Source: Lentimicrobiaceae bacterium (GTDB lineage Bacteria; Bacteroidota; Bacteroidia; Bacteroidales; F082). From it: a stretch of DNA of 64,000 nucleotides. The stretch's first letter is position 1. Each line of letters starts with the position of its first letter. This document shows, piece after piece, positions 3,287-63,165 of the stretch. The DNA lies in assembly GCA_015061315.1 (NCBI GenBank), contig SUWV01000009.1:19193-83192 (forward strand). The letters run 5' to 3'. Both the position numbers and the translations under genes were made by a program. The notes under the pieces were generated by a model. It had not been told where the DNA came from. It worked only from the letters and a program-made list of their open reading frames with translations, and made no database searches.

Positions 3287-4300
3287 TTGAATAAGAGAGC
3301 ATCCAACGTAATAACATATATTATTTTCCTCTTATTAGGGATTCTTCTTCTTTGGCTTTGCTTCAGAAAGATAGAGTTCTCACAGGTATTGGATTACGTC
3401 AAAACGGCAAAATATTCATGGATGCTCATCAGCCTCGCATGCTTAGCAATTTCGTTATTCTTCAGAGCCTTACGATGGAATATCTTGATAGAGTCGTTAG
3501 GATATAAGACAAGAGTCTCAACGACTTACGAATCGGTCTTAATAGCTTATTTCGCTAACACTGTCTTTCCTCGACTCGGTGAGGTGACGCGTTGCGGAAC
3601 TCTCACTAAAAAAGAAAACATACCCTTCGACAAGTCATTCGGGACTGTAGTCTCAGAACGCATCATCGACCTTGTCATACTTCTCGCAATGGCATTGTTA
3701 GTCATTCTGTTTCAATGGAATCTGTTAGGAAGCCTCATCACATCCTGGCTCAATCCTCTCATAGAAAAACTGACAAGTAATATTCTCATGGGAATTATCG
3801 TCATTACCTTGACAATAGTGTTTTGTCTCGCTATCGTGTTAATCTTCAGAAAGAACAGAGAGAAAATATCACAAAATAAATTGTATAGAAAAATAGCCTC
3901 TATATGGGACGGTTTTGTCGATGGCATGAAGTCGATTTTCACTATGGAAAAGAAAGGCTTGTTTATCATCTATACATTATTAATATGGGGATTTTATGTC
4001 GTGATGACATGGCTGCCATTCTATATGCTTCCTGAGACATCACATCTCGGGCTGACAGAAGCAGTGACTTTGTTAGGACTCGCCACCTTAGGCGTCGTAG
4101 CTCCAGTTCCAGGCGGAATGGGCGTATATCATTTCATAGGTATATTGTTGCTCAACGGTTTCTACGGAATATCAGAATCAGCGGCAGTGTCGTTCGTGAC
4201 GATAAATCACACAAGTCAGATGATATTTTATTTAGTGACAGGAGTTATTGCTTACGTCATTATGTTCTTTGTTGACAGACGTTTGCCTGTTAATGACTAA
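3287..4300 (+). CDS. flippase-like / lysylphosphatidylglycerol-synthase TM-region (UPF0104) family membrane protein
   Basis: A 337-aa polytopic membrane protein. FPRLGEVTRCG and the C-terminal PGGMGV motif resemble UPF0104. It appears to use a TTG start 4 nt after panD. Confidence 0.55.
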   Translation: MNKRASNVITYIIFLLLGILLLWLCFRKIEFSQVLDYVKTAKYSWMLISLACLAISLFFRALRWNILIESLGYKTRVSTTYESVLIAYFANTVFPRLGEVTRCGTLTKKENIPFDKSFGTVVSERIIDLVILLAMALLVILFQWNLLGSLITSWLNPLIEKLTSNILMGIIVITLTIVFCLAIVLIFRKNREKISQNKLYRKIASIWDGFVDGMKSIFTMEKKGLFIIYTLLIWGFYVVMTWLPFYMLPETSHLGLTEAVTLLGLATLGVVAPVPGGMGVYHFIGILLLNGFYGISESAAVSFVTINHTSQMIFYLVTGVIAYVIMFFVDRRLPVND

Positions 4301-4341
4301 AGACTAAAGGCTAAAGACTAAAGGGAATAGGAAATTATAAC

Positions 4342-6741: not shown

Positions 6742-6791
6742 GCAATTTTCAGATGTGTCAATTTCGTATTGTTAAAATCATTGGTGTAATC

Positions 6792-6966
6792 GACGCGTCT
6801 CTACAAATTGTCAATTGTACATTTTCAACTGTTAATTGTAAATTGTAAATTAATTTGGGCGTTCCGGCTACGCCGTCGGGCTTTCCGCTATATCTTTTTC
6901 CGCTTCGCTCCAAAAGGATGTCGCTCCAATCCCTAACGCAAAGCGGCTACTATGTACAGACGCGTC
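6792..6966. repeat. 14-bp inverted repeats (GACGCGTCTCTACA / TGTACAGACGCGTC) enclosing 147 bp of word repeats plus a GC-rich island
   Basis: The arms at 6792-6805 and 6953-6966 match 13/14 as reverse complements. The arm sequence belongs to the TAGAGACG hairpin family seen elsewhere in the window. Confidence 0.6.
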
Positions 6967-7979: not shown

Positions 7980-8038
7980 AATTATATTTCTTTTTACATC
8001 AAATTTTCTCAATTTTTCAGATTTTCAGATTCTCAATT

Positions 8039-8240
8039 TTAAGGGGGCTTCTATAAATTGCTTTGCAAATGATTTATGAATTTTTATTGAGAAGATTTTT
8101 GTATTTCTTGAAAGAACATAGCGAGCTATGTGATTGAAAGAAAGACGAAAAGATTCCAATAAAAAGCATAAAGCGTGCAAAAGTTTTTACTGTCATTGTT
8201 AAAAGTTATTAAAACGGGGAATTTATAGAAGTCCCCTTAA
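8039..8240. mobile_element. MITE-like element or long imperfect palindrome bounded by 21-bp terminal inverted repeats
   Basis: TTAAGGGGGCTTCTATAAATT (8039-8059) matches the reverse complement of AATTTATAGAAGTCCCCTTAA (8220-8240) at 20/21 positions. Inner symmetric segments lie at 8060-8078 and 8167-8183. There is a central 7-bp hairpin ACATAGC-GA-GCTATGT at 8116-8131. No ORF is present. Confidence 0.45.
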
Positions 8241-9525: not shown

Positions 9526-10596
9526 TTATATAAATCTAATTTGCAGATTCAACTTTAGAAAATACTCTCCGTTTTCTTCGTATATTTTCCCGAAGTTATG
9601 ACGGCTTGTACTTGGTGTATCGAAAAAGGTATTATGATAAAGATATTCTTCCAAATCATTTCTGTCGAAAAAGTGATAACATATTATATTTCCGTCTTCT
9701 TTTACGATAATATAACCACCATTTGCATGAAACTGTCCGTACCAAGGTTTAGCAGATGTCATGCCGAGAGCAAATGCCAAAAGAAATTGTTTGACCTTGT
9801 ATTCATACATCGGTTGATCGGTACTATCCATAATATTCAGAGGATCTGTTTCTGTTATCAGTTTTATGGTGTCGGATAATGATTTTGATTTCCCTGAATA
9901 ATATAGCAACAAGGCTTCTGCAATAATTTTTTCTATACCTAAATCCAATAAGGTAAGATTATTATGAAAAACATTATTAGCAGTTGAGATATAAGAAAGT
10001 ATTGTGTCGTGAGATTGCAGATAATGGAATTTCTCTTTAAAATTGTCACACGAATTAAATTCATTCATTTGTTCTGCAGAGATACCATTCACTCGATATA
10101 TGAAATTTGTAGCGTCTTTATTAGAATTGATTAGTGACGATTTAGCTCCTAACTTAGATTTGATACTGTAACCGAGTTCTGGTTTAGAACCTCTTTTCAG
10201 GTCGTGAATAACAATTCTAATATCTGCCTTATCCGATGACTTTGCTTTAACCGTGTGAATATCTATCATCTCCATGAAAGATTCAATATATGAAAAGTCG
10301 GTGTTATCATTCTTAGATTTAATAAGAGCTAACAATGCAGCAGCCTCATTCGTAAACCTATCTTGTGGAACTTCAATATCGATGTTATTACCTTTTATTA
10401 TTATGCTTCTTCTTTCAGATTGTATCTTGTATGAATTCCTATCAGGTTTGTCATCTCTAAATAATTCTAAAACAGGATAGAATTTGTCATCATATCTATT
10501 TAGGTAAGCATCTCCACAATAAATACATCCATCTGAAAGCAATTTAAAGAAAGCATACAGTTCGCTCCATTCTCCTTTATTTCCTTTTAGTGCCAT
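9526..10596 (-). CDS. type II restriction endonuclease, HpaII family (probable CCGG specificity)
   Basis: With the start at ATG 10596 the product begins MALKGNKGEWSELYAFFKLL. As I recall it, this matches the conserved N-terminus of HpaII-family enzymes. The 356-aa length also fits. It overlaps the methyltransferase stop by 20 nt. Confidence 0.7.
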   Translation of the reverse strand: MALKGNKGEWSELYAFFKLLSDGCIYCGDAYLNRYDDKFYPVLELFRDDKPDRNSYKIQSERRSIIIKGNNIDIEVPQDRFTNEAAALLALIKSKNDNTDFSYIESFMEMIDIHTVKAKSSDKADIRIVIHDLKRGSKPELGYSIKSKLGAKSSLINSNKDATNFIYRVNGISAEQMNEFNSCDNFKEKFHYLQSHDTILSYISTANNVFHNNLTLLDLGIEKIIAEALLLYYSGKSKSLSDTIKLITETDPLNIMDSTDQPMYEYKVKQFLLAFALGMTSAKPWYGQFHANGGYIIVKEDGNIICYHFFDRNDLEEYLYHNTFFDTPSTSRHNFGKIYEENGEYFLKLNLQIRFI

Positions 10597-11827
10597 AATC
10601 TTTGTTTTTTGACAGATTAATTCTTTTAATAATTTCAGCAGCTGTCGCTTGAATTGCAGGGACCGCCACGGAATTTCCGAATTGCTTATAAGCCGAAGCA
10701 TCTGCAACTCCAATTATAAAATTATCTGGAAATCCTTGCAATCTTGCCCATTCTCGTGGTGTCATTCTACGAAGTCCGTCTCTGTTAACCTCACCTTTTA
10801 TACGTGTTACTGGCGTAAAGTCTTCCAAACGATTGTCAATTACTAAGTTTCTTTCTCTCCCCATGCCGCCAACTACAATGGCGTTTGCGACCTCATCATC
10901 ATTGATTATTTCATAACCAAAACCATTGCCCTTTGAAGCATGGCGTTCCTTATGCGCAATAAGAGTCTTAATATACTGCGTGGATAAATAATATTTTGCA
11001 GAAACAGTTTCTTTTTCTTTTACATCAGAGAAAGTTTTGGTGGTGTCTGTTGGTTTAGGATATGTAAATTCATTAACATTTTGGTCTTTCCTAAAACCAA
11101 CGATATATAATCTTTCACGATGTTGAGGGACACCGAAATTCATTGCATTTACTATCTGAGGTTCTGGAACATAATAATCTAAATCTTCTCTAAGAACTTT
11201 TAAGATTGTCTGAAGAGTTTTTCCTTTATCATGAATCAGCAGACCTTTTACATTTTCTAAGAAAAATGCTTTAGGTCTTTTACGGCGTAAAATCTCAGCT
11301 ACATCAAAAAACAACGTACCTCTTGTTTCCTCAAATCCCAATCGCTTTCCTGCCAATGAAAATGCCTGGCAAGGAAAACCCGCACATAACACATCAAAAT
11401 TATCAGGTATATATGATTTCGTACTTTCTTTAGTTATATCACCAAAAGGGACCTCTCCATAATTTAAAAGATATGTTTTTTGTGCTTGAGTATCCCACTC
11501 AGATGAGAATACACATTTACCACCAAGATTCTGCATCGCCAACCTAAATCCTCCAATGCCAGCGAATAAATCTATAAAAGTAAATTTATGATTTTCAATG
11601 GGTAAAAACGGGACTGAAAAAAAATCATCGAATAATGTATAGTATGAGGTATTTTCTGAAGGATGAGTTGTTACCTCATCATCAATATTATAATCATAGA
11701 TTTCTCTAATTAGAGTCTTTGCTCTCTCCTCATAATTATTTGCGAACCCATATCCTTTGTTATGTATATAGTGAGATATAACGGCAATCTGTTCTTCCTT
11801 TCCTTCGGTTTTTGTCTCTTTCTTCAT
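10577..11827 (-). CDS. DNA (cytosine-5)-methyltransferase
   Basis: All canonical m5C motifs are present: I FIDLFAGIGGF, IV GFPCQAFS, VI ENVKGL, VIII QHRERLYIVG and X GNSVAVP. Confidence 0.95.
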   Translation of the reverse strand: MKKETKTEGKEEQIAVISHYIHNKGYGFANNYEERAKTLIREIYDYNIDDEVTTHPSENTSYYTLFDDFFSVPFLPIENHKFTFIDLFAGIGGFRLAMQNLGGKCVFSSEWDTQAQKTYLLNYGEVPFGDITKESTKSYIPDNFDVLCAGFPCQAFSLAGKRLGFEETRGTLFFDVAEILRRKRPKAFFLENVKGLLIHDKGKTLQTILKVLREDLDYYVPEPQIVNAMNFGVPQHRERLYIVGFRKDQNVNEFTYPKPTDTTKTFSDVKEKETVSAKYYLSTQYIKTLIAHKERHASKGNGFGYEIINDDEVANAIVVGGMGRERNLVIDNRLEDFTPVTRIKGEVNRDGLRRMTPREWARLQGFPDNFIIGVADASAYKQFGNSVAVPAIQATAAEIIKRINLSKNKDYGTKRK

Positions 11828-13289: not shown

Positions 13290-14468
13290 ATGAAGAAAGT
13301 ATTGTTGGTATTTGGAACACGTCCTGAAGCTATCAAGATGGCTCCATTAGTAAAGAAATTTCAAGAAGACTCTGAATTTCAAACTATTGTATGTGTGACA
13401 GCCCAACATCGCGAAATGCTTGATCAAGTTCTCGACATCTTTGACATAAAACCTGACTATGATTTGAATATCATGAAACAAGGTCAGGATTTATACGATA
13501 TAACATCAAGAGTCTTGCTCGGACTTCGTGACGTTCTTAACGAAACAAATCCAGATGTCGTTCTTGTTCATGGCGACACAACTACTTCAACAGCAGCGGC
13601 ATTGGCAGCTTTCTACAAGCAAATTCCCGTCGCTCATGTCGAAGCTGGACTTAGAACCAATAATATTTACAGTCCTTGGCCAGAAGAAATGAACCGCAGA
13701 ATAACAGGACGCATCGCAACCTATCATCTTGCGCCAACGGAACTAAGTCGTCAGAATCTTTTGAAAGAAAATGTTGATAATCAAAATATAATTATTACAG
13801 GTAACACTGTTATCGACGCTTTGTTATGGGTTGTCAATAAAATTAAAAGTGACGCCAATCTCGCCGAAACATTGCAAATAAATATTAAGAATAACGGTTA
13901 CGATATAAATCGTATTTCATGTGAAGACACACGTCCGTGTGCCTCTACAAGAAAACTCGTTCTTATCACAGGACATCGTCGCGAGAACTTTGGAGAAGGT
14001 TTTAGAAATATCTGTAATGCAATCAAGACATTATCTATAAAATATCCTGATGTCGATTTTGTTTATCCGATGCATTTAAATCCTAATGTACGTAAGCCTA
14101 TAGCAGAAATTTTCGGTAACGACAAAGATAAATCAGGGAACACTTTTTTCATAGAACCTCTTGATTATCTTAACTTTGTCTTTTTGATGGAAAAAGCAGA
14201 CATCATCTTGACCGACAGCGGTGGCATACAAGAAGAAGCACCGAGTCTCGGAAAACCAGTCTTGGTAATGCGCGACAATACCGAACGTCCGGAAGCTTTA
14301 GAAGCCGGGACAGTGAAACTCGTTGGAACTGATTACGATAAGATTATCAATGAAGTTTCGGAATTATTGGATAACGAAGAATCTTACAACAAGATGAGCA
14401 AGGCTGTCAACCCATACGGCGACGGATCAGCCTGCAAAAGAATCGTCGATTTCATGAAAAAGAACTGA
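13290..14468 (+). CDS. wecB: UDP-N-acetylglucosamine 2-epimerase (non-hydrolysing)
   Basis: [51 protein letters not shown] and NPYGDG are the full WecB signature set. Confidence 0.95.
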
Positions 14469-15727
14469 GTTCTTAACGAAACCTGATTCCTTATCGAATT
14501 GTTTCTCTTTGCCTTGACAAACTAATTCTAAAAATCTCGCTATCGTGCTTCCTAACTTGCCTTCTAAATGAGTGTTAGAAGAAGCATTATAATATTGTAA
14601 AATTTCTTTTGTCGGCATCACTTCTATTGGATTCTTAATGAATTTTAACAATTCATCTTCAGTATTTGCTAATTTAACCAAATTATTTTTAACAAAATTA
14701 TAATCATCAAGAATGATGTTGTTAGATATATTAAAAAGTACAGTGGGACAATACATTATAGAAGCATCAAGGTGAATTGCCGATTCATTGGAAATCATGA
14801 AATCGATTTTAGATATAAAATCAAATGAGCTTTCTTCTTTAGGATTGGAAATCGCAATGTTATTTTTTATTAACCATTCTGTATTAAGATGCTGATAACG
14901 AGGATGCGGACGGAGAATCAAATCATGATAGTTATTATTTTTTAAGAAAAGACAAAGTTTTTTAACTTTATCAAAATCATCTAACATATTGATTGCTACG
15001 CCAATTTTCTTTACGTCATAATTTCTTTTAACAATTTTATCATAAAGAAAATCGAAACGGACTCCGCCAGAGAGATAAACCTCGCCTTTAGGTAAGCCTG
15101 CATAAAAATATTTCTCCAACGACTCTTTTCCATCTAAGAAGGAATATGTAAAGTCAAGTCTTGGAAATCCTTTCTTCACAGAAGCGTGCTGCACATAAAC
15201 TGTCTTAATTCCTCTTTCTAAAGCATTAAAAATCAAGCATCTGTTAATGTCGTTATGATCATTTGCAAGAACTAAAACCTTTACCTCATATTTATCCAAC
15301 ATCTCACCTGCAATCTCATAAAGTCCGTATGTCGTCAAAAGACGTGTGAAATATTTAAGAATCAGAGCTTTATCTTCTTTATTAGATTTTTTGTAAAGTT
15401 TTATTAAGGTAGAAAGATAAGGAATGCTATGCCACCAGGCGCGCCTTTTATGAACGTCTGTAATATGATTATTGAGATATAGATATGTGTCTTTTTCAAT
15501 ATTGTTGATTATCGGTTCCAAAGAGCGTCTGTTGTTGAGCGAGACTCCAAAGAAAAGCAATCCTTTATAATTGACAGGCAACGACTTATATTTAAAATGT
15601 ACGATAAAAGTGTAATAAAAAAGCTGTCCGATGAAAATACATATCTGCTTGAATAATGAAGGTTGCTTTTCCTTCACAATTCGTGATATTTCATTGATTT
15701 CTAAAACGTTAAGATTACTATATTTCA

Positions 15728-15728
<1 letters not shown>
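14427..15728 (-). CDS. unassigned GT-B-like transferase; candidate nonulosonic-acid/Kdo-type or TagF-like transferase
   Basis: 433 aa. It has VYVQHA and LRPHPRY (an H-P motif as in bacterial sialyltransferases and TagF-type enzymes) and [10 protein letters not shown]. It is the last gene of the NeuB operon. The family is not recognised with confidence. Confidence 0.35.
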
Positions 15729-29860: not shown

Positions 29861-29908
29861 CTCTATAATTTTATTAGTGTTAAGTTTTATTTATTTTATG
29901 GAAGCAAT

Positions 29909-29932
29909 AAGGACGCAATTCAATGCGTCCTT
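29909..29932 (-). terminator. hairpin terminator downstream of paralog 2
   Basis: AAGGACGCA-attcaa-TGCGTCCTT is a perfect 9-bp stem located 13 nt after the stop of 29945..31825. Confidence 0.6.
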
Positions 29933-29944
29933 ACATTTTGTATT

Positions 29945-34983: not shown

Positions 34984-36312
34984 ATGAGAAAAATAACACA
35001 TATTAGAAAAGGCTTTTCCAAGCTTCTCAAGGAAGATAAATTGAAAGCTGTTGCGGAATGTGTGAAGAACCCGTCTGAGTTTATTTCCTTATTGAAGAGT
35101 TTCTGGCATTCCGACGAGGAGAAACAGAAACAATTTGATGAGTTCAGCGAGAACACTATTTCTAATTTTCATGTCCCTTACGGCGTATCTCCCAATGTGA
35201 TTATCAATGATGAAACGTATATCGTTCCTATGGTTATTGAAGAAAGCTCTGTCGTGGCAGCAGCATCGGCAGCGGCGAAGTTCTGGGGCGACAGAGGTGG
35301 CTTCCATGCAGAAATAGTTGATGTGAAAAAAGTAGGTCAGGTGCATTTCTGCTGGAAAGGAGAGAAAGACACTTTGACAAAACTGATGCCCGACATCAAG
35401 GCTGAGCTTCTGAAAAACACTGCTTCCATCACAGAGAAAATGGAGAAACGCGGCGGCGGAATATTGGATATTGAACTCATCGATTTCACCGATAAGATAG
35501 ATAACTATTATCAGCTTCGCGTCACCTTCAACACCTGCGACTCCATGGGCGCTAACTTCATCAATTCTATCTTGGAAAACTTCGGTCATAGCTTGCAAGA
35601 CTTCTTCTTACGTCAGGATAATTTGAAAGAAGACGAGAGAGAAGTCGAGATTGTGATGTGTATCTTGTCGAATTATACTCCCGAATGTTTAGTGAAGGTT
35701 TGGGTTGAATGTGACGTGAAACAGTTAGATGGCGTCGATGAAAAACTCGATGGCAAGGCTTTCGCCGAGAAATTCAAGAAAGCTGTCGATATTGCACACG
35801 TCGACGTATATCGCGCTACCACTCATAACAAAGGAATTTATAACGGCATCGACGCCGTCGTCATCGCGACAGGCAACGACTTCCGTGCGGTAGAAGCAGC
35901 AGGACATTCCTACGCCGCAAGAAACGGTCGCTACGAAAGTCTTTCATACGTCGAAATTAAAGATGATATTTTCAGATTTACCTTGGAAGTACCACTCGCT
36001 CTCGGCACCGTCGGCGGATTGACATCCTTACATCCTCTTGCAAAACAATCGCTCGAGCTCATGGGTAATCCTTCGGCAAGACAGCTTATGATGATAGCTG
36101 CGACAATGGGACTCGCCAATAATTATGCTGCCGTTAAGTCACTAACAACAAAAGGAATACAACAAGGACACATGAAGATGCACCTCGCCAATATCCTCAA
36201 TCAGCTTGGAGCGACAGAAAATGAAAAGACATTGGCGATAGAATATTTTAAAGATAAAATCGTTTCTTATTCTGAAGTAGAGAAATTTTTACAATTAATA
36301 ATAACCAAATAG
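34984..36312 (+). CDS. mvaA: hydroxymethylglutaryl-CoA reductase, class II
   Basis: EESSVVAAAS, CDSMGANFIN and LGTVGG are class II HMGR signatures. It is followed by other mevalonate-pathway genes. Confidence 0.9.
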   Translation: MRKITHIRKGFSKLLKEDKLKAVAECVKNPSEFISLLKSFWHSDEEKQKQFDEFSENTISNFHVPYGVSPNVIINDETYIVPMVIEESSVVAAASAAAKFWGDRGGFHAEIVDVKKVGQVHFCWKGEKDTLTKLMPDIKAELLKNTASITEKMEKRGGGILDIELIDFTDKIDNYYQLRVTFNTCDSMGANFINSILENFGHSLQDFFLRQDNLKEDEREVEIVMCILSNYTPECLVKVWVECDVKQLDGVDEKLDGKAFAEKFKKAVDIAHVDVYRATTHNKGIYNGIDAVVIATGNDFRAVEAAGHSYAARNGRYESLSYVEIKDDIFRFTLEVPLALGTVGGLTSLHPLAKQSLELMGNPSARQLMMIAATMGLANNYAAVKSLTTKGIQQGHMKMHLANILNQLGATENEKTLAIEYFKDKIVSYSEVEKFLQLIITK

Positions 36313-36407
36313 CCTGAAGGGCTTATATAGATATAACGTATGGCATGGCCGTACGGAATTGCCTGAAGGGCTTATATAGATACAACGTATGGCATGGCCG
36401 TACGAAT
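36312..36407. repeat. tandem direct repeat, 2 x 49 bp, each unit carrying a CGTATGGC-atg-GCCGTACG hairpin
   Basis: Units at 36312-36360 and 36361-36407 differ at one position within the first 44 nt. They start at the last base of the HMGR stop codon. Confidence 0.85.
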
Positions 36408-36420
36408 ATAATGAGGAATT

Positions 36421-37419
36421 ATGAATTGTTTTAAATCGAACGGTAAATTTTTATTGACGGGAGAGTATCTCGTTTTGAAGGGCGCTACTGCTTTGGCTCT
36501 TCCCTTGGCATTAGGACAGAGCATGGAGGTAGAAATTTTAGGCTCCAACGATGGCAGGATTTATTGGGAAGCGCTTTTGAAGCCTGCGGTCAATGGTTTA
36601 TGGTCTACAGACATCGTTCATAGTGAAATACCTTGGTTTAAGGTTGTTTTAGACAAAAGAGATTTTAGTGTTGTTGCGACTGACGACAAGGAAAGAGCTG
36701 AGCGTTTGTCGGATATATTATCGAAGGCTAAGAGACTGAACGAAACTCTTTTTGATGAGCCGAGCGACTATAAATTCTGCACATATTTGGATTTCGACCC
36801 GCACTGGGGTCTGGGCAGCAGCTCCACCTTAATTAATAATATAGCCGAATGGGCTAATATAAATCCTTATCTTTTGTTGGACGAGACTTTCAAAGGCTCT
36901 GGCTACGACATAGCATGCGCTAAGGCGGAAGCACCAATCTTTTATCAAATCAACGAATCGACAGGACAAAGAGTCAATGAGTCGAGAGCGGCAAACTTCA
37001 ATCCTTCTTTTAAAGATAATATTTACTTTATATATCAAGGTCATAAGCAAAATTCTGCCAATGAAGTAAAGGCTTTCTTGGATAAGAAGAAAAATTATGA
37101 TAGAGAAATTAAATCGATCAGCGAGATCAGCAGAATTATTCCTGACATACAGACACTCAGTGATTTCAATTATTTCATCAAAGTTCATGAAGAGATAATG
37201 TCGAGCTGCTTAGAACGTAAACGCATAAAAAAACATTTCAACGATTTTGAAGGTGAGATGAAATCGCTCGGAGCATGGGGCGGCGATTTCTTCATGGCAG
37301 CCACAGAATGGGACGATGATAAAGTAATTGAATATTTTAGAAATAAAGGACTTGATGTTATTTTCAAATATAACGACATAATATTAAATCGTGAAATTGA
37401 AAAAACTCTAACCCTTTAA
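36421..37419 (+). CDS. GHMP-family kinase, probable phosphomevalonate kinase (ERG8-like)
   Basis: GKFLLTGEYLVLKGATALALP at the N-terminus, the GHMP motif HWGLGSSSTL, and the operon context. Confidence 0.6.
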   Translation: MNCFKSNGKFLLTGEYLVLKGATALALPLALGQSMEVEILGSNDGRIYWEALLKPAVNGLWSTDIVHSEIPWFKVVLDKRDFSVVATDDKERAERLSDILSKAKRLNETLFDEPSDYKFCTYLDFDPHWGLGSSSTLINNIAEWANINPYLLLDETFKGSGYDIACAKAEAPIFYQINESTGQRVNESRAANFNPSFKDNIYFIYQGHKQNSANEVKAFLDKKKNYDREIKSISEISRIIPDIQTLSDFNYFIKVHEEIMSSCLERKRIKKHFNDFEGEMKSLGAWGGDFFMAATEWDDDKVIEYFRNKGLDVIFKYNDIILNREIEKTLTL

Positions 37420-37452: not shown

Positions 37453-38472
37453 ATGAATAATCAGATAATAAAACATAGTCCATCTAATATCGCAATAGTA
37501 AAATATTGGGGCAAACACGGAAATCAACTTCCTAATAATCCGTCTATCAGTTTTACCTTAAGTAATTGCTTTACAGAAACGAAAATAACTTACAGCAATA
37601 TAGATTCTCAGTTTTTCAAATCCTCAGATTCTCAGATTTCTTTAGATTTCTTTTTTGAAGGAAAGGAAAATCAAGCTTTTAAAGATAAGATAGAGAAGTT
37701 TATTCTGAAGAACGAACAATATTTTTCTTTCTTAAAAGGGCTTCATCTGAATATTGAAAGTCGCAATTCTTTTCCACATTCTTCTGGCATCGCTTCGAGT
37801 GCATCATCTATGAGTGCATTGGTAATGTGCTTATTAGGAATTAAATATAAAGACAGAGAGATTGATTTACAGGAGGCTTCATTTCTTTCAAGATTAGCAT
37901 CGGGCAGTGCAGCTCGTTCTGTATATCCGACAATGACCTTGTGGGGGAAAACTCCAACATTGTCGAATAGTTCCGATGAGTACGCCATTCCTATAGGCGA
38001 TATGATAGCACCAGTCTTCAAGTCATATCACGACACAATATTGATTGTCAGCTCAAAGGAAAAAAGTGTTTCAAGCCGCGCTGGTCATTCCTTGATGGAA
38101 AATCACCCTATGGCAGAAAGTCGTTACGCCACAGCAAGAAAAAATACTGAAGATTTATTGACGATTTTAAAACAAGGCGACATAGAAGGTTTTATAAAAA
38201 TAGCCGAAGCTGAAGCTAATCAGCTGCACGATTTAATGGCAACATCAAAGCCTTCATATACTCTCAAAGAACCTAATACTATTAATATCATTAATAAAAT
38301 TTTAGAATTTAGAAAAGACACTTCTCTTCCAATATGTTATACATTAGACGCTGGTCCTAACGTACATCTTCTCTATCCTGATTTCTGCGCCGATAAGGTT
38401 CAGCTCTTCATTGAAGACGTGTTGAAAGACTATTGTTTTGATAATAAATATATCGAGGATAAGGTTGGATGA
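37453..38472 (+). CDS. mvaD: diphosphomevalonate decarboxylase
   Basis: SPSNIAIVKYWGK, FPHSSGIASSASS and YTLDAGPNVH are MVD signatures. Confidence 0.9.
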   Translation: MNNQIIKHSPSNIAIVKYWGKHGNQLPNNPSISFTLSNCFTETKITYSNIDSQFFKSSDSQISLDFFFEGKENQAFKDKIEKFILKNEQYFSFLKGLHLNIESRNSFPHSSGIASSASSMSALVMCLLGIKYKDREIDLQEASFLSRLASGSAARSVYPTMTLWGKTPTLSNSSDEYAIPIGDMIAPVFKSYHDTILIVSSKEKSVSSRAGHSLMENHPMAESRYATARKNTEDLLTILKQGDIEGFIKIAEAEANQLHDLMATSKPSYTLKEPNTINIINKILEFRKDTSLPICYTLDAGPNVHLLYPDFCADKVQLFIEDVLKDYCFDNKYIEDKVG

Positions 38473-38536
38473 GGAATGAAGAATGTAGAATGTAGAATGA
38501 AGAATGTAGAATGGTTAATGCTTATTGACTTATATC

Positions 38537-45008: not shown

Positions 45009-46778
45009 ATGATGAAACATTACAACATACCGATTTTTTTACCCGAACTCGCTTGCCCTTATCGCTGCGTTTATTGTAATCAATTTAGCATTACGGGAAA
45101 TGACGATATTGTAAAACCTGAAGATGTTAAGAATATAATCGACAGCCACTTAGCTTCTTTTAAAGAAGAAAATCGTTTCGTGGAAGTGGCTTTCTTCGGT
45201 GGTAATTTCACCGGACTTCCTGTCAAAATGCAAAACGATTATCTTGAAGTGGTGCAGCCTTATCTTGATAAAAATCTCATTCACGGTATTCGTTGTAGCA
45301 CTCGCCCCGATTATATCTCGCTTCAGCGTGTTAAAGAAATTAAACATCTCGGTATGCGTAACATCGAACTCGGAGCACAAAGCACTAACGACGAAGTTCT
45401 GAAACATTGTAAACGTGGTCATACTTACAACGACATCGTTGAGGCATCGCAGATAATTCTTTCCGAAGGAATTACGTTGGGACTACAAATGATGATAGGT
45501 CTTCCTTACGATTCTGAAGAGAAGGATTTTCAGACAGCAAAAGATATAGTAAATCTCGGAGCTAAAGAGACTCGCATCTATCCTTGTATCGTAGTGAAGG
45601 ACACTGAGTTAGAGGCTTTATATCGTAATGGAGATTATAAAGCTCTTTCTATCAATGAAGCTGTAAGTCGTTCTTCAAAATTATATTCTTATTTTATTGA
45701 AAATCAAGTTAAAGTTTTAAGAATAGGTCTGCATCAATCTGATGAGTTGGATAAAGAAGGTTACGTTGCCGGTCCATATCACAAGAATTTTGCTGAGATG
45801 GTTTTCTCTCATATCTGGAAAGAGAAGTTTGAGAATCTGAAAATCTCAGAATCTGAAAACCTGAAAAAAGACATAATAATCAATGTGCCTGCATCGCAGA
45901 TAAATCACGCTATAGGATGGAATGGCGAGAATAAGAGAATGTTGTTAGATCGATTTGATAAAGTAGAGTTTAAGGCTAATGACAAAAGACAAAAGACAAA
46001 AGATGAAGATGATGATTTTACGTTTACCATCACTACAAAAGACGAGCTTCCGACAATTATCGCTGATTCGAGAATGCCAGAGGATGCGAAGAAAAATCTG
46101 AAGAAATTAGGAAACGTCCTTTTCATCAATCCTACTTCTGTGACTTATAATTCAATATCTTCACATCCAGATATTTTCTTCTTTCAAAAAGACGATGCTT
46201 TGATTTATGCGCCCAATGCTCCGAAAAGAATAGTCAAGGAATTGAAGAAGCGAAAGATAAAACTCATCGAAGGCAAGAAAGAAGTCGGGAAGAAATATCC
46301 GGAGACGGTTCCTTATAACGCAGTCGGAATTGGAAATCTGTTGATACATAATTTAAAACATACCGACGAGACGATTTTGTCATCTTACGAAAATCACATA
46401 AATGTTAATCAAGGATATACGCGATGTAATCTTTTGGCTTTGAATGAAAATGCGTTTATCACGTCAGATGTTGGCATTTTCAATGTAGTCAACAGTCAAC
46501 AGACAACAGACAACAGTCTTTATCCACACGAATCTCTTGTAGGTACGTCCATATTGTACATCGACCCAAAACAAATTAAATTGGAAGGTCAGAAAAACGG
46601 ATTTTTCCCAGGCTGTTGCGGCGTTTGGAAAAACAATCTTATCGTTTGTGGCAGCACAAAAAATCTAAAAGAGAAAGCCGAATTAGATAAATTCTTGAAA
46701 GATAATAATTTCAATCTCATTGAATTATACGACGGAGATTTGATTGATGTGGGAAGCGTTTTTTCAATTGACAATTAA
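45009..46778 (+). CDS. radical SAM (ELP3-like) protein fused to a C-terminal domain of unknown function, possibly DUF6873/GME-fold-like
   Basis: The N-terminus has CPYRCVYCNQ (CxxxCxxC) and a radical SAM core of about 300 aa. The C-terminal 240 aa or so contains SSHPDIFFF and other features that I only tentatively associate with the DUF6873 family. Confidence 0.6.
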   Translation: MMKHYNIPIFLPELACPYRCVYCNQFSITGNDDIVKPEDVKNIIDSHLASFKEENRFVEVAFFGGNFTGLPVKMQNDYLEVVQPYLDKNLIHGIRCSTRPDYISLQRVKEIKHLGMRNIELGAQSTNDEVLKHCKRGHTYNDIVEASQIILSEGITLGLQMMIGLPYDSEEKDFQTAKDIVNLGAKETRIYPCIVVKDTELEALYRNGDYKALSINEAVSRSSKLYSYFIENQVKVLRIGLHQSDELDKEGYVAGPYHKNFAEMVFSHIWKEKFENLKISESENLKKDIIINVPASQINHAIGWNGENKRMLLDRFDKVEFKANDKRQKTKDEDDDFTFTITTKDELPTIIADSRMPEDAKKNLKKLGNVLFINPTSVTYNSISSHPDIFFFQKDDALIYAPNAPKRIVKELKKRKIKLIEGKKEVGKKYPETVPYNAVGIGNLLIHNLKHTDETILSSYENHINVNQGYTRCNLLALNENAFITSDVGIFNVVNSQQTTDNSLYPHESLVGTSILYIDPKQIKLEGQKNGFFPGCCGVWKNNLIVCGSTKNLKEKAELDKFLKDNNFNLIELYDGDLIDVGSVFSIDN

Positions 46779-46943
46779 CAGTTTACAATTAACAATTGAA
46801 AGAAATGTCACTTGATATGCAGCAACGACATCTCGTTTATTATTTTCTGTGTCGTTGATATGTCTCTATAGTTGTTGCTCAAAGCTCAAAGCTCATTGCC
46901 AAAAAATCTTTAGTCATTAGACTTTTGACTTTAGCCTTTTTTC

Positions 46944-46968: not shown

Positions 46969-48927
46969 ATGAAAAAAATTGAGCTTTTATCGCCGGCGAA
47001 GAATCTTGAAGTAGGCATCGCGGCTATCAATCATGGCGCTGATGCTGTGTATATTGGCGGACCGAGTTTTGGTGCGAGAGAGAAAGTTGGTAACAGCATT
47101 GAAGATATTGAGACTCTGTGCAGACACGCGGCTCTCTTCGATGCTAAAGTATATGTCACGATGAATACTCTCTTGTTCGACAATGAGTTAGAAGATGCTC
47201 GCAAGCTCGCTTACGACTGCTGGAATGCTGGTGTCGATGCACTCATAGTCCAGGATATGGCGCTGCTGAATATGGATATGCCTCCTATCGCACTTCACGC
47301 TTCGACTCAATGTCATAATATTGACGCAGAGAAGGTTAAGTTCTTGGAAGACGTAGGATTTTCTCAAGTCGTTTTGGCGAGAGAATTAAGCATCGAACAG
47401 ATAAAAGACATTCGTTCTAAGACGACAGTTCCGTTAGAATATTTCGTTCACGGTGCCTTGTGCGTCTCGTATAGCGGACAATGTTATTTGAGTCACGTCA
47501 TCGGTGGACGTTCCGCTAACAGAGGTGCCTGCGCTCAGCCTTGCCGTCTCAGCTGGAATCTCGAAAATGCGGAAGGCAAACGCTTGGCTACCAACAGACA
47601 TCTTCTTTCTTTAAGAGATCTGAATAACTCTAAAAACATAGAAGAACTCATCGACGCCGGAATCTCTTCTTTTAAGATTGAAGGCAGGTTGAAAGATATT
47701 GACTACGTGAAAAATGTCACTGCCTTTTACAGAAAGAAAATCGACGAAATCATTGAACGTCGCGACGATATTTGCAGAAGCTCACGCGGCGAAAGCAATC
47801 CCTCTTTCTATCCAAATCCAGAGAAATCGTTTTCAAGAGGCTTCACCGACTATTTCATCCACGGAAGACAAAAATATATCGACGCTCCATATTCGCCTAA
47901 GTCGATGGGAGAATATCTCGGAACGATAGAAAAAGTCAAGAATAAGTCAGTGACTATCAGAACAGGAAAAACGCTTCATAACGGCGACGGACTTTGTTTC
48001 TTAGACAGAGAAAACAATCTTTTAGGATTTAATGTTAACGCCGTGGCGGAAAACAAAACACGTTCTTTGACTCAGACTGTTACGAGCAACTCTGACATTT
48101 CGATGGCAACGCGATTTAAGATTGAAGGCAGCAAGATTTTCAGAAACAGCGACCTTGTCTGGCAGAAGGAAGTCGAGAAATCGCAAGGTAACAGAAAGAT
48201 GAAAATAGACTTGATATTTACTGATACAGAAGACGGATTTGCCTTGTCAGCGAAATTACATGATACAGATTCAGAATATATCACGACATATTTATCTACC
48301 GAGAAAGAAATCGCCAACAATGCGGATAAGGCGTTGGAAAATATCAAGAATAAACTATCGCAATGGGGCGATACGGAATTTGTGGTGGAGGAGTTTTGTT
48401 TTGGTCAACAAGACAACGAGACAACAAGTCACCGAGATGTGGAGTTGCAGAAATTTCCCGTAGAGACATACGGACGTATGTCTTATTTTATTAGGGCATC
48501 AGTTCTCGGTGAGATGAAAAAAGATTTGGTCGAGAAGCTACGTTCATATCTCATTGAGAAACATCGTGATGAAAGAGAACGTAGAGATGTCACTCCTGTA
48601 GAGACGTACGGACGTACGTCTTCACAACAAAATGTAATTTATCCTAAAGAACATCTTTCATATCTCGGCAATGTCATCAACAAGAAAGCGAGAGAGTTTT
48701 ACGAGCTTCATGGTGTGAAAGATATTGAAGACGGTTTGGAGAAAATCAAATCTAATGACGAGCTTGTTGTGATGACGACGAAACATTGTATTCGTTACGC
48801 TAATAATATATGTAGCAAGGAGATAGGGAAGCCAGCGACATCCTTATATTTGGTCAACGACAAAGGACGCTTCCGTCTCGATTTCGATTGCAGAAATTGT
48901 TGCATGAAAGTGATAAAAGAAAAATAA
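46969..48927 (+). CDS. peptidase U32 family protein (long form with a C-terminal extension)
   Basis: ELLSPA, GADAVYIGG, FVHGALCVSYSGQCYLS and SANRGACAQPCR are U32 signatures. The 652-aa product contains repeat-derived segments (see findings). Confidence 0.85.
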   Translation: MKKIELLSPAKNLEVGIAAINHGADAVYIGGPSFGAREKVGNSIEDIETLCRHAALFDAKVYVTMNTLLFDNELEDARKLAYDCWNAGVDALIVQDMALLNMDMPPIALHASTQCHNIDAEKVKFLEDVGFSQVVLARELSIEQIKDIRSKTTVPLEYFVHGALCVSYSGQCYLSHVIGGRSANRGACAQPCRLSWNLENAEGKRLATNRHLLSLRDLNNSKNIEELIDAGISSFKIEGRLKDIDYVKNVTAFYRKKIDEIIERRDDICRSSRGESNPSFYPNPEKSFSRGFTDYFIHGRQKYIDAPYSPKSMGEYLGTIEKVKNKSVTIRTGKTLHNGDGLCFLDRENNLLGFNVNAVAENKTRSLTQTVTSNSDISMATRFKIEGSKIFRNSDLVWQKEVEKSQGNRKMKIDLIFTDTEDGFALSAKLHDTDSEYITTYLSTEKEIANNADKALENIKNKLSQWGDTEFVVEEFCFGQQDNETTSHRDVELQKFPVETYGRMSYFIRASVLGEMKKDLVEKLRSYLIEKHRDERERRDVTPVETYGRTSSQQNVIYPKEHLSYLGNVINKKAREFYELHGVKDIEDGLEKIKSNDELVVMTTKHCIRYANNICSKEIGKPATSLYLVNDKGRFRLDFDCRNCCMKVIKEK

Positions 48928-50739: not shown

Positions 50740-50749
50740 TATGTATCTT

Positions 50750-50777
50750 GTAGAGACGCACAGCCGTGCGTCTTTAC
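50750..50777. repeat. TAGAGACG-family hairpin between aspS and pfkA
   Basis: GTAGAGACGCAC-agcc-GTGCGTCTTTAC is a 12-bp stem with one mismatch. Confidence 0.75.
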
Positions 50778-50803
50778 GTGAGATACGATAAATAACGACC
50801 AAA

Positions 50804-51898
50804 ATGAAACGAGTATTAGTATTAACAGGCGGCGGCGATTGTCCAGGTTTGAATGCCGTGATAAGAGCCATCGTGAAGAGAGCCTCGCAGGAAAAAGACT
50901 GGGAAGTCCTCGGCAGCATACAAGCCTTCAACGGAGTGCTATGGGAGCCATCAGAGATAGTGCGACTCACTCCTGAGACTGTGAGAGGAATACACTTCAG
51001 AGGCGGAACCATTTTAGAGACAACTAACAAAGGAGGCCCGTTCTCGTGGCCGGTGAAAAACAACGACGGCACTTGGACAACGGTAGATCGCTCCGATGAG
51101 ATGATCAAGAAACTGCAGTATATGGGCATCGACTGCGTCATCAATATCGGCGGTGACGGCTCGCAAAGAATATCAAAGAAGTTATTCGACAAAGGACTTA
51201 ATATAATAGGTGTTCCAAAGACTATCGATAACGACTTATCTATGACCGACAGCACTTTTGGTTATCAGACTGCCGTCGAGATAGCCACCGAGGCAGTAGA
51301 TAAGTTAGTCACAACGGCAGCAAGTCACAACCGCGTTTTTGTATTAGAGGTGATGGGTCGCGACGCCGGATGGATTGCTTTAAACGCAGCCGTTGCTGGC
51401 GGAGCGGAGGTGTGTCTCCTTCCAGAATTTCCTTACGACATAGAGAAAGTAAAAGAGAAGTTAGAGAGCCGCTTCGTCAATGACAGAGGTTTCGCTGTTG
51501 TTGTCATCTCTGAAGGCGCTAAGCCTAAAGACGGACAGCAGGTGTTTGAAGTCAGCAAGGAAGTAGGTTATGAAAACGTGAAACTTGGTGGCATCGGACA
51601 GAAGTTCATCGAGCAGATGAAAGCCGCAGGATTCAAACACGATATGCGCGAGACCACATTAGGTCACTTGCAAAGAGGCGGTGTGCCAATAGCATACGAC
51701 AGAGTGTTGGCATCGCAATTTGGCGTCAAAGCATTCGAGATGGTGTTGAATCAGGAATACGGAAATATGGTAGCTTATCGTCATCCGAATATTATCTCAG
51801 TACCTTTGAAAGACGCCGTCGCTAAGATGAATCTCGTCACCGAAGAACACGACTTAGTCAGAACCGCGAAAGGACTTGGAATCTCGTTGGGAATATAA
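50804..51898 (+). CDS. pfkA: 6-phosphofructokinase
   Basis: LTGGGDCPGLNAVIR, IGGDGS, PKTIDNDL and MGRDAG. Confidence 0.9.
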   Translation: MKRVLVLTGGGDCPGLNAVIRAIVKRASQEKDWEVLGSIQAFNGVLWEPSEIVRLTPETVRGIHFRGGTILETTNKGGPFSWPVKNNDGTWTTVDRSDEMIKKLQYMGIDCVINIGGDGSQRISKKLFDKGLNIIGVPKTIDNDLSMTDSTFGYQTAVEIATEAVDKLVTTAASHNRVFVLEVMGRDAGWIALNAAVAGGAEVCLLPEFPYDIEKVKEKLESRFVNDRGFAVVVISEGAKPKDGQQVFEVSKEVGYENVKLGGIGQKFIEQMKAAGFKHDMRETTLGHLQRGGVPIAYDRVLASQFGVKAFEMVLNQEYGNMVAYRHPNIISVPLKDAVAKMNLVTEEHDLVRTAKGLGISLGI

Positions 51899-51918
51899 GA
51901 AATTGAGAATCTGAGAAA

Positions 51919-51979
51919 CTGAGAATCTGAGAAATTGAGAAATTTTCAGATTTTCAAGTTTTCAGATTTTCAGTTTTTT
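51919..51979 (+). terminator. intrinsic terminator of pfkA built from word repeats
   Basis: The left arm at 51919-51941 (CTGAGAATCTGAGAAATTGAGAA) pairs with the right arm at 51951-51973 (TTTTCAAGTTTTCAGATTTTCAG). The stem is 23 positions with three G-U pairs and one mismatch. The loop is 9 nt and is followed by T6. Confidence 0.7.
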
Positions 51980-53240: not shown

Positions 53241-53372
53241 CAGTCTAAAGTCTACGGATTATTTAAGTCAATAAGTAGAGACGTGACACATTACACCTGT
53301 AAAAATGAAAGAGATGTAATTGGTGCGTCTCTCATTGTTTCTCAGATTCTCAGATTTTCAATTTCTCAGATT
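53241..53372. repeat. composite intergenic repeat, copy B (AGTCTAA tract / TTAAGTCAATAAG / TAGAGACG hairpin / CAGATTYT tract)
   Basis: Colinear with 984-1182. The hairpin is TAGAGACGTGACACATTACACC (53276-53297) ... GATGTAATTGGTGCGTCTCT (53313-53332). Confidence 0.8.
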
Positions 53373-63086: not shown

Positions 63087-63165
63087 TTAGTTCAGTTTAT
63101 AATTAACAGTTTACAATTTATAATTTTCAATTTATAGTTAGATGCAAAGATAGGGAAAAATGACG

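Follow-up and report, generated by a model that had tools for sequence, protein, structure and literature searches.

A hairpin is inserted in frame in wecB, the gene for a non-hydrolysing UDP-N-acetylglucosamine 2-epimerase, in a 64-kb stretch of DNA (64,000 nucleotides, nt) from a Lentimicrobiaceae bacterium of sheep gut and faeces (assembly GCA_015061315.1, contig SUWV01000009.1); this whole stretch is called the window below. The hairpin belongs to a family of repetitive extragenic palindromes (REPs) that is linked to REP-associated tyrosine transposases (RAYTs), it is derived and polymorphic at the wecB site, and it obeys a rule of reading frame that holds across the family. We consider it probable that the hairpin represents the GTAG 'double-foot' type of REP that goes with RAYT subclass 2.4 (HUH/Y1 enzymes; RAYT group 4), and that it was inserted in wecB, was tolerated there and was spread by recombination. 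An earlier note, made from the DNA letters alone, had described the hairpin and assigned it to a repeat family with a second member in a U32 peptidase gene of the window. The observation is real and the interpretation given with it is supported by the comparisons reported here, with two refinements: the hairpin family is not specific to this lineage but is a REP of RAYT subclass 2.4 that is present in many phyla, and translation of the element in both orientations comes down to the two stop-free frames of a palindrome. In what follows, the labels L, P and X denote loci or contigs, proteins and sequencing runs, respectively, and the related contigs that could be read for the same lineage come to approximately 150 kb in total.

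The hairpin in wecB

The wecB product matches the Pfam family Epimerase_2 (2.3e-123; residues 22-390 against profile positions 1-347 of 347) and aligns over residues 3-392 with E. coli WecB (1f6d; 2.5e-145), including the TGHRRE segment, in which the HRRE motif is kept. The 32-nt string TGTGAAGACACACGTCCGTGTGCCTCTACAAG has a single occurrence in the window, at 13920-13951, which extends the interval of 13921-13950 given in the earlier note by one base at either end, and a codon begins at its first base, confirming the in-frame placement inside wecB that had been proposed. The insert encodes eleven residues directly ahead of the LVLITGH strand; at this position the alignment shows a gap in E. 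coli WecB and in four other solved WecBs, in agreement with the short loop before this strand that the earlier note gave for well-studied enzymes.

The 28-nt REP core within the insert reads GTGAAGACACAC-GTCC-GTGTGCCTCTAC on the + strand and differs by seven substitutions from the canonical palindrome GTAGAGACGCACGGCCGTGCGTCTCTAC. The 5' GTAG foot is intact on the - strand (GTAGAGGCACAC...), where it corresponds to CTAC at the 3' end of the + strand, and the + strand foot has decayed to GTGA; it is only because one foot has decayed that an orientation can be defined for the element in this lineage. In the frame of the gene, the copy translates as (C)EDTRPCAST. The segment folds as a hairpin both in the sense direction (-12.8 kcal/mol, z -3.7) and in the antisense direction (-17.4 kcal/mol, z -4.7). 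In a low-confidence structure model (AlphaFold2, built with 24 orthologs that are all at least 88% identical; mean predicted local distance difference test score (pLDDT) 58, predicted template modelling score 0.52), insert residues 210-219 are predicted to be coil, with a strand at 222-227 after them, and the model suffices only for this placement of the insert in coil ahead of the strand.

Table 1. Positions in the window of wecB, its polymorphic patch and the four REP copies.
Feature	Position	Strand	Remarks
wecB, non-hydrolysing UDP-N-acetylglucosamine 2-epimerase	13290-14468	+	392 residues, intact; host of the insert; identified by Pfam and by structure match
Polymorphic patch in wecB	13907-13948	+	42 nt, AAATCGTATTTCATGTGAAGACACACGTCCGTGTGCCTCTAC, against 18 nt, TGATAGGATTGAAGATAA, in empty alleles
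REP core in wecB	13921-13948 (pattern match 13922-13949)	-	28 nt
First REP in the U32 peptidase gene (46969-48927, +)	48460-48487 (pattern 48459-48486)	+	in frame, VETYGRMS
Second REP in the U32 peptidase gene	48598-48625 (pattern 48597-48624)	+	in frame, VETYGRTS; the copy used for comparison in the earlier note
Intergenic REP between aspS and pfkA	50750-50789 (pattern 50749-50776)	+	GTAGAGACGCACAGCCGTGCGTCTTTAC plus the 12-nt flank GTGAGATACGAT

Filled and empty alleles of wecB

A protein search yielded 120 orthologs with 88-99% identity, or 121 with the window protein added. The site is empty in 97 of the 121, which have 384 residues and read ...DRIEDKRKLVL, ...GYDIDRIEDKRKLVL or ...ERINNDRKLVL. 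The remaining 24 are filled, with 392 residues or more and with eleven residues at the site against three in the short form; the encoded peptides vary (e.g., [HY]EDTCPCVST, SRKEARTCVST and PRKDARMCVSA), and the wecB open reading frame (ORF) is intact in all of them. The spacing from GNTVIDAL to TGHRRE is 56 residues in the window protein against 48 in the empty alleles and in the nearest relatives at 71-74% identity, and its median is 40 residues among 100 diverse WecB representatives. A REP-like peptide was absent from all 150 diverse WecB representatives. Extra residues in orthologs from genomes without the repeat would have refuted the reading of the earlier note; this was not the case, as they are missing from the 97 close orthologs, from the nearest distant relatives and from the 150 diverse representatives.

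Four filled alleles (window, L002, L123 and L124) and three empty alleles (L001, L125 and L126) were aligned at the DNA level. The net gain in the polymorphic patch is 24 nt, or 8 codons. All filled alleles read ..GATRTR-AATCGTATYTYAYRTRAAGAYRCAYGKMCGTGYGYCTCWAC-AAGAAAA, whereas all empty alleles read ..GATRTT-GAWAGGATT(GAAGATAA or AATAACGA)-MAGAAA, and the conserved Arg just upstream of the patch is encoded by CGT in every filled allele and by AGG in every empty allele. Outside the bin that bears the patch, the window allele and the empty allele L001 show an identity of 0.93-1.00 per 60-nt bin, and the best explanation of the window allele is an otherwise empty-type gene with a filled patch. 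Taken together, these data demonstrate that the hairpin in wecB is a real, derived insertion.

An assembly artefact is ruled out for the insert, since two separate sheep-gut runs, X1 and X2, have contigs (10,967 and 4,529 nt, at depths of 37 and 15, respectively) that span it without a gap. Unitigs of runs X5, X12 and X25 end at 13906, the left edge of the patch, contigs of runs X26 and X29 bear an allele that is 24 nt shorter, and a contig of run X31 that starts at 13949 is preceded by TAGGATTGAAGATAA, which is empty-allele sequence. Unrelated contigs in other runs match 13923/4-13954/5 only, which is the hairpin alone. Run X25 is transcriptomic, and one of its contigs, of 111 nt (13877-13987), shows no difference from the filled allele. 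The possibility that the insert is removed at the RNA level was rejected, as this contig retains it; carry-over of DNA into that run is possible.

The four sequenced filled alleles have identical junctions and a common AATCGTAT flank, and all of them have a decayed foot of the GTAA/GTGA type, with A as the fourth base. When the wecB gene tree was computed with the variable patch excluded, filled alleles stood in at least five separate places, and the window allele and P0001 were nested within a large empty clade. Furthermore, the allele P0083/L126 is a mosaic, in which an upstream segment of the filled clade is joined to an empty site. We read these data as one old insertion haplotype that was moved between backgrounds by homologous recombination, re-insertion at a hot spot being less likely. 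Several independent insertions at a targeted site in wecB, with a fresh copy in the window instead of one imported by recombination, would fit the scatter of filled alleles on the tree and the position of the window and P0001 within an empty clade; in addition, the REP cores of the window and L002 differ at 8 of 33 positions, including a compensatory pair, and if the 12-nt flank listed in Table 1 belonged to the mobile unit, which its occurrence at the aspS-pfkA copy would permit, shared flanks would be no proof of a single origin. However, such a history is quite unlikely in view of the identical junctions and the decayed foot in all four filled alleles, the mosaic structure of wecB alleles elsewhere (L126) and the lack of a conserved target around the perfect copies of the family, described next.

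The REP family and its transposase

The family was surveyed by a scan with GTAGAGACRYACNNNCGTRYGTCT in one genome per species, which gave at least 120 loci, with 146 copies among the loci listed. The commonest form is the canonical sequence, a perfect 28-nt palindrome. The two variable stem pairs are complementary in 142 of the 146 copies, in 22 of them by way of compensatory variants, and the second foot is CTAC, hence GTAG on both strands, in 80. Judged by record titles, the family spans about eleven phylum-level groups, with hosts among many Bacteroidota, Spirochaetota, Cloacimonadota, Desulfobacterota, Parabeggiatoa, an alphaproteobacterium, Moduliflexus/UASB14, Chloroflexota, Fibrobacterota/Chitinivibrionales, FCPU426, Clostridia, Deferribacteres and Phycisphaerae; Saprospiraceae are also among the hosts. 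Five of the surveyed records are isolates and most of the others are metagenome-assembled genomes (MAGs), so some of the phylum labels could be binning errors. No conserved target or longer mobile unit was found around 72 perfect copies, which showed weak preferences (ATT, CAC) and no consensus. A literature search with the exact DNA and peptide strings of the element returned no match.

On either strand, the canonical palindrome has two open frames, VETHGRASL and RDARPCVST, and a third frame that contains TAG. Among the 120 listed loci, 43 placements lie deep in stop-free ORFs of at least 200 residues, and all 43 are in the two open frames; wecB uses the RDARPCVST frame and the U32 peptidase gene uses the VETHGRASL frame. 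The earlier note had proposed that the element tolerates translation in both orientations. This is borne out, but what is observed is the two stop-free frames of a palindrome, which are available on either strand. Peptides of the VETHGRASL frame occur in the U32 gene of the window, and peptides of both frames in unrelated genes of other genomes. Hosts confirmed with Pfam, all with the insert inside or between domains, are the HATPase_c domain of a histidine kinase, FGE-sulfatase, EcoEI_R_C of HsdR, a HydF GTPase, ArgRS (insert immediately ahead of its catalytic domain), a radical-SAM/DUF6873 linker, and an alpha-2-macroglobulin with both frames.

Thirteen of the 120 listed loci encode a protein of approximately 200 residues with the motifs MPNHLHAI, WQ..YHDHIIR and YI.NNP, which matches the NCBIfam model REP_Tyr_transpos ('REP-associated tyrosine transposase') with 80.8 bits (cut-off 80) and also matches Pfam Y1_Tnp. 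The top cluster of ORFs across the hairpin had been a candidate for spurious ORFs; this was rejected by the motif search, which identified them as RAYT genes. At 8 of the 13 loci (L009, L020, L025, L039, L052, L068, L070 and L098), the RAYT ORF itself contains the REP in frame, between the HUH motif and PKSISSF, with short peptide repeats flanking it; one of the RAYT loci, L039, is from a Lentimicrobiaceae MAG. Among the best 120 homologs of one RAYT from the REP-bearing loci (P0121-P0240), 97 have V[EQ]THGRAS[LQ] between the HUH motif and PKSISSF, and several bear the Joint Genome Institute name 'REP element-mobilizing transposase RayT'. The internal repeats vary in length (e.g., HDSHD x5, and about 25 copies of GDDDGRGLH in L020), and 30 to 102 residues separate the HUH motif from PKSISSF over the RAYT loci and these homologs. 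A mechanism resembling a diversity-generating retroelement, or phase variation, was considered for a hairpin beside variable sequence, and these ideas were dropped because the RAYT link was found.

According to Quentin et al. 2018 (PMC6006769), TnpA_REP proteins of subclass 2.4, which is RAYT group 4, have NH[IFV]H, WQ and YIxNNP motifs and about 194 residues, and their REPs have a 'double foot', with 5' GT[AG]G and 3' C[TC]AC, and occur in frame within tnpA_REP, which also has a variable region of short repeats. The subclass is described there as abundant in Bacteroidetes and Cyanobacteria and scattered in other phyla. The foot pair, the RAYT motifs (here NH[LI]H, WQ and YIxNNP), the internal REP, the variable repeats and the distribution given there were all seen in the present family, which makes the wecB hairpin a REP of that system. 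In keeping with a GTAG-type REP, the wecB copy is a short hairpin palindrome with a 5' GT[AG]G foot, and copies are present or absent at orthologous sites in wecB, at both U32 sites (L132) and between aspS and pfkA (L133). As for the subclass 2.4 system, a RAYT gene containing or flanked by the same REP was found at the level of the family. The wecB copy and both U32 copies lie inside ORFs, which departs from the extragenic position of REPs and is a documented exception (PMC3733652).

Other copies and repeats in the window

A degenerate family pattern had four matches in the window (Table 1) and no match in any of 100 shuffled versions. It matches both the wecB copy and the U32 copies, which places them in the same hairpin family, as the earlier note had held. 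The two are related when the wecB copy is reverse complemented, at 26 of 32 positions and with 79% identity over 38 nt, so that 'nearly identical' was too strong a term for them. The three window copies other than that in wecB start with GTAGAG, foot decay variants in this lineage have GTGA, GTAA or ATAA instead of GTAG, and a related MAG also has copies (three in L018, and L107).

In the U32 peptidase gene, an in-frame 8-nt tandem repeat of the CAACAAGA type (48406-48437) precedes the first REP, and the L132 ortholog has GACAACA x3 in place of this array and the first REP. The second REP is absent from the L132 ortholog (ERETFVKPKTNAIYPKE against ERERRDVTPVETYGRTSSQQNVIYPKE). The gene has three in-frame hypervariable sites (48380-48490 region; the third at about 48105). 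At the third site, a different and longer hairpin, GTAGAGACGCGTCAATG...CATTGACACGTCT, is present in L132 and GAGTCAAC x5 in L023, and the window has neither. Among strains with identical PfkA, the lengths of the U32 protein are 639, 646, 652 and 672 residues.

The copy between aspS and pfkA matches the wecB copy over 44-52 nt. Its 12-nt flank GTGAGATACGAT is common to the filled wecB alleles, AAGA is shared on the other side, and its sequence ATCGTATCTCACGTAAAGAC equals the wecB sequence of L124 at 20 of 20 positions, with the same GTAA foot variant in both. The aspS-pfkA spacer of the window (50740-50803; 62 nt) contains the REP, whereas L133 (2926-3000), with an identical PfkA protein, has an unrelated 73-nt spacer with GCTA-rich short repeats and no REP. 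A metagenome scan with SATCGTATYTCAYGTRAAGAY found the 12-nt flank beside a hairpin at no other locus, its three matches being chance matches with no hairpin; on this result, the flank was rejected as a part of a multi-copy unit.

Another small repeat, GGTGTAAT-N4-6-G[CT]GTCTCTA(C), is present four times in the window, at 1113-1133, 6783-6803 and 53315-53335 (+) and at 53275-53297 (-). All four include the REP's 3' half (GCGTCTCTAC), and a 7-8-nt tandem array comes directly after three of them. A Flavo-1 RNA motif (6870-6952, -; Rfam RF01705, 44.6 bits with a gathering score of 42) adjoins such a module of half-REP and tandem array. No Rfam family lies over the wecB hairpin; the only Rfam matches in the window are tRNA and Flavo-1 RNA. 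Tandemly repeated half-REPs are found in other genomes too, e.g., in L042 and L053, and the REP in other genomes is often flanked by 7-12-nt tandem repeats.

The window also contains dozens of short, mostly intergenic tandem arrays, with units of 7 or 8 nt that are repeated 4-7 times, such as ATTGTCA, AAAGTCT, TTTTCAGA, CAATAAGT and ATGAAGA and others (e.g., 235-266, 982-1013, 1042-1184, 1870-1959, 4291-4323, 6805-6851, 8014-8040, 37602-37638, 38469-38513, 45830-45867, 46765-46797, 51887-51978, 53339-53373 and 63096-63134). The strongest tandem repeat is a 49-nt unit present 2.1 times with 92% identity (score 181; 36308-36408), just upstream of an ORF at 36421-37419. A different perfect hairpin, TAAGGACGCAATTCAATGCGTCCTTA, with a 10-bp stem lies at 29908-29933 between two convergent or tandem ORFs, and could be a terminator or another type of REP.

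Around wecB, the 3' end of the gene overlaps by 42 nt (14427-14468) with the 3' end of a convergent 433-residue ORF (14427-15728, -) that has no Pfam match; the same arrangement is present in L001 and L126. Upstream of wecB, two ORFs of 395 and 416 residues (9526-11827, -) lie between two UDP-glucose/GDP-mannose dehydrogenase genes. Their counterparts in L002 carry the annotations RE_HpaII and DNA_methylase, the first window ORF falls in one cluster with that of L002, and L001 has nothing at this site. The two ORFs resemble a restriction-modification pair that some strains have and others lack.

Discussion

In the explanation that we favour, a RAYT would recognise the single-stranded hairpin with its GTAG foot and spread the REP, as the family association and work on E. 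coli TnpA_REP suggest. A REP copy would have entered wecB in an ancestor of part of the sheep-gut Bacteroidales lineage, at a predicted three-residue surface loop that follows the long inter-domain helix and precedes the first beta-strand of the C-terminal domain. Selection would retain only those copies in tolerant loops that leave the frame of the gene unbroken and are not read in the TAG frame, and recombination would then spread or remove copies, with filled and empty states segregating in the population. The wecB copy probably persists because its length keeps the frame, a stop-free frame is read and the loop tolerates the added residues. The original insertion in wecB was presumably made by a RAYT acting on the single-stranded hairpin, and the insert is probably neutral for enzyme activity; it is most likely a tolerated passenger and not a functional module of the enzyme.

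Several points weigh against this explanation. The wecB junction is not clean, as 42 nt stand for 18 nt and the codons to the left differ between filled and empty alleles, and no known REP or IS200-type mechanism predicts a replacement junction. The 12-nt flank common to the wecB and aspS-pfkA copies fits no simple insertion, and neither does the swap of the whole aspS-pfkA spacer in L133. No RAYT turned up in a tblastn search of the window and of the approximately 150 kb of related contigs, which are a small part of the genome, and for this reason the RAYT is assigned to the family and not to this genome. According to Quentin et al. 2018 (PMC6006769), no experiment has yet demonstrated that a RAYT transposes. 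Finally, neutrality for enzyme function is a prediction, and the structure model is poor (mean pLDDT 58).

A broader proposal, rather unlikely, is that REPs enter by templated patch replacement, serve as in-frame loop cassettes and spread across phyla inside their own transposase gene. The target stretch may be overwritten by the REP together with a flank copied from a donor copy, as opposed to cut-and-paste; patch replacement of this kind fits the exchange of 42 nt for 18 nt, the shared 12-nt flank and the whole-spacer swap between strains. REPs and 7-8-nt tandem repeats would then form hypervariable in-frame cassettes that remodel loops, the U32 gene with its three sites being an example, and the 28-nt sequence would be identical across about eleven phylum-level groups because it is carried in its own transposase gene.

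It is very unlikely that the hairpin or its peptide is kept in wecB for a function, with the polymorphism under selection. Such variants could act through an mRNA structure that tunes translation or decay of the polysaccharide-locus transcript, or through a Cys loop (CxxxxxC; CEDTRPC) that alters regulation. The upper 8-bp stem is kept in the four sequenced filled alleles despite sequence change (ACAC/GTGT against GCAC/GTGC), the polymorphism is old enough to occur on several diverged backgrounds, wecB lies in a variable surface-polysaccharide locus, and a role as RNA elements has been proposed for REPs (PMC3733652). However, the same conservation of the stem is seen in intergenic copies and in unrelated genes of many phyla, so it is a property of the family and not of wecB; moreover, the encoded peptide varies freely, and 97 of the 121 orthologs do without the insert. 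Ordinary lineage-specific loop expansion or an assembly error with a coincidental likeness to the hairpin, for which the variable loop length of WecB (27-127 residues from motif to motif) could be cited, has next to no probability and is refuted by the absence of pattern matches from the shuffles, the 44-52 nt match to the aspS-pfkA copy, the independent assemblies at depths of 37 and 15 and the unrelated contigs that share the hairpin alone.

With insertion and tolerance of a REP as the favoured explanation, the same enzyme with and without an 8-residue loop encoded by a REP, in alleles that are otherwise 97-99% identical, amounts to a natural experiment, and the tolerance of selfish DNA in an essential-type enzyme is therefore directly measurable. 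Some gut samples appear to contain filled and empty alleles side by side. For annotation, the element explains the recurrence of RDARPCVST and VETHGRASL in unrelated MAG proteins, where these are repeat-derived segments and not homologous domains. As a candidate system, the wider family could help to show how REPs are moved by RAYTs, and the parts of most value for follow-up are the replacement-type junctions and the identity of the REP across phyla.

Compared with other small palindromic elements, the wecB hairpin is not a miniature inverted-repeat transposable element (70-300 bp, with terminal inverted repeats and a target-site duplication), since its unit is 28-44 nt and no duplication is present at the wecB junctions. 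Rickettsia palindromic elements (RPEs), reportedly described by Ogata et al. in 2000, are said to be selfish palindromes that lie in frame in functional genes, typically at surface-exposed positions. RPE-1 is approximately 100-150 bp long and restricted to Rickettsia, and it is not known to have a transposase. Unlike the RPEs, the wecB element has a 28-nt core, a Bacteroidales host and a family-level link to a RAYT, and identity with an RPE was ruled out by the core and the host. Small dispersed repeats of cyanobacteria, which Elhai et al. are said to have described in 2008, are reportedly mobile palindromes of 21-27 nt accompanied by tandem heptamer arrays. Intergenic heptamer direct repeats have been reported in Beggiatoaceae, Cyanobacteria and a few Bacteroidetes (MacGregor 2015, PMC4679880). 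The REP, too, often has 7-12-nt tandem repeats beside it, and its hosts include Parabeggiatoa, Saprospiraceae, Moduliflexus and Chloroflexota; the distribution over filamentous Cyanobacteria, Beggiatoaceae and Bacteroidetes suggests horizontal spread of such small repeats; however, the sequences of the small dispersed and heptamer repeats differ from that of the REP, and no enzyme is named for them in those papers.

Among the closest precedents, intragenic REPs tagged with GTAG or CGTC add short peptides without breaking the frame, in genes for tRNA synthetases and for repair among others (Di Nocera, De Gregorio and Rocco 2013, PMC3733652). Those authors concluded that the insertions argue against functional constraint, that disruptive ones are purged and that the rest are tolerated, not functional; their cases are mostly from Opitutus terrae, Rickettsia conorii and proteobacteria, with Bacteroidetes named once (PMC3733652). 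The present copies are likewise in frame in genes for known proteins (ArgRS, HsdR, histidine kinase and WecB). The accessible part of Quentin et al. 2018 (PMC6006769) contains no statement on the sharing of one 28-nt REP across phyla. The wecB copy differs from the RAYT-linked REPs of subclass 2.4 in that it lies in the gene of a housekeeping sugar-nucleotide enzyme, neither within a RAYT gene nor beside one, and has one decayed foot (GTGA). Altogether, the phenomenon of intragenic REPs is already known and wecB is another case of the RAYT subclass 2.4 family, to which it adds, beyond the cases of 2013 (PMC3733652), a population-level polymorphism of filled and empty alleles at the same codon.

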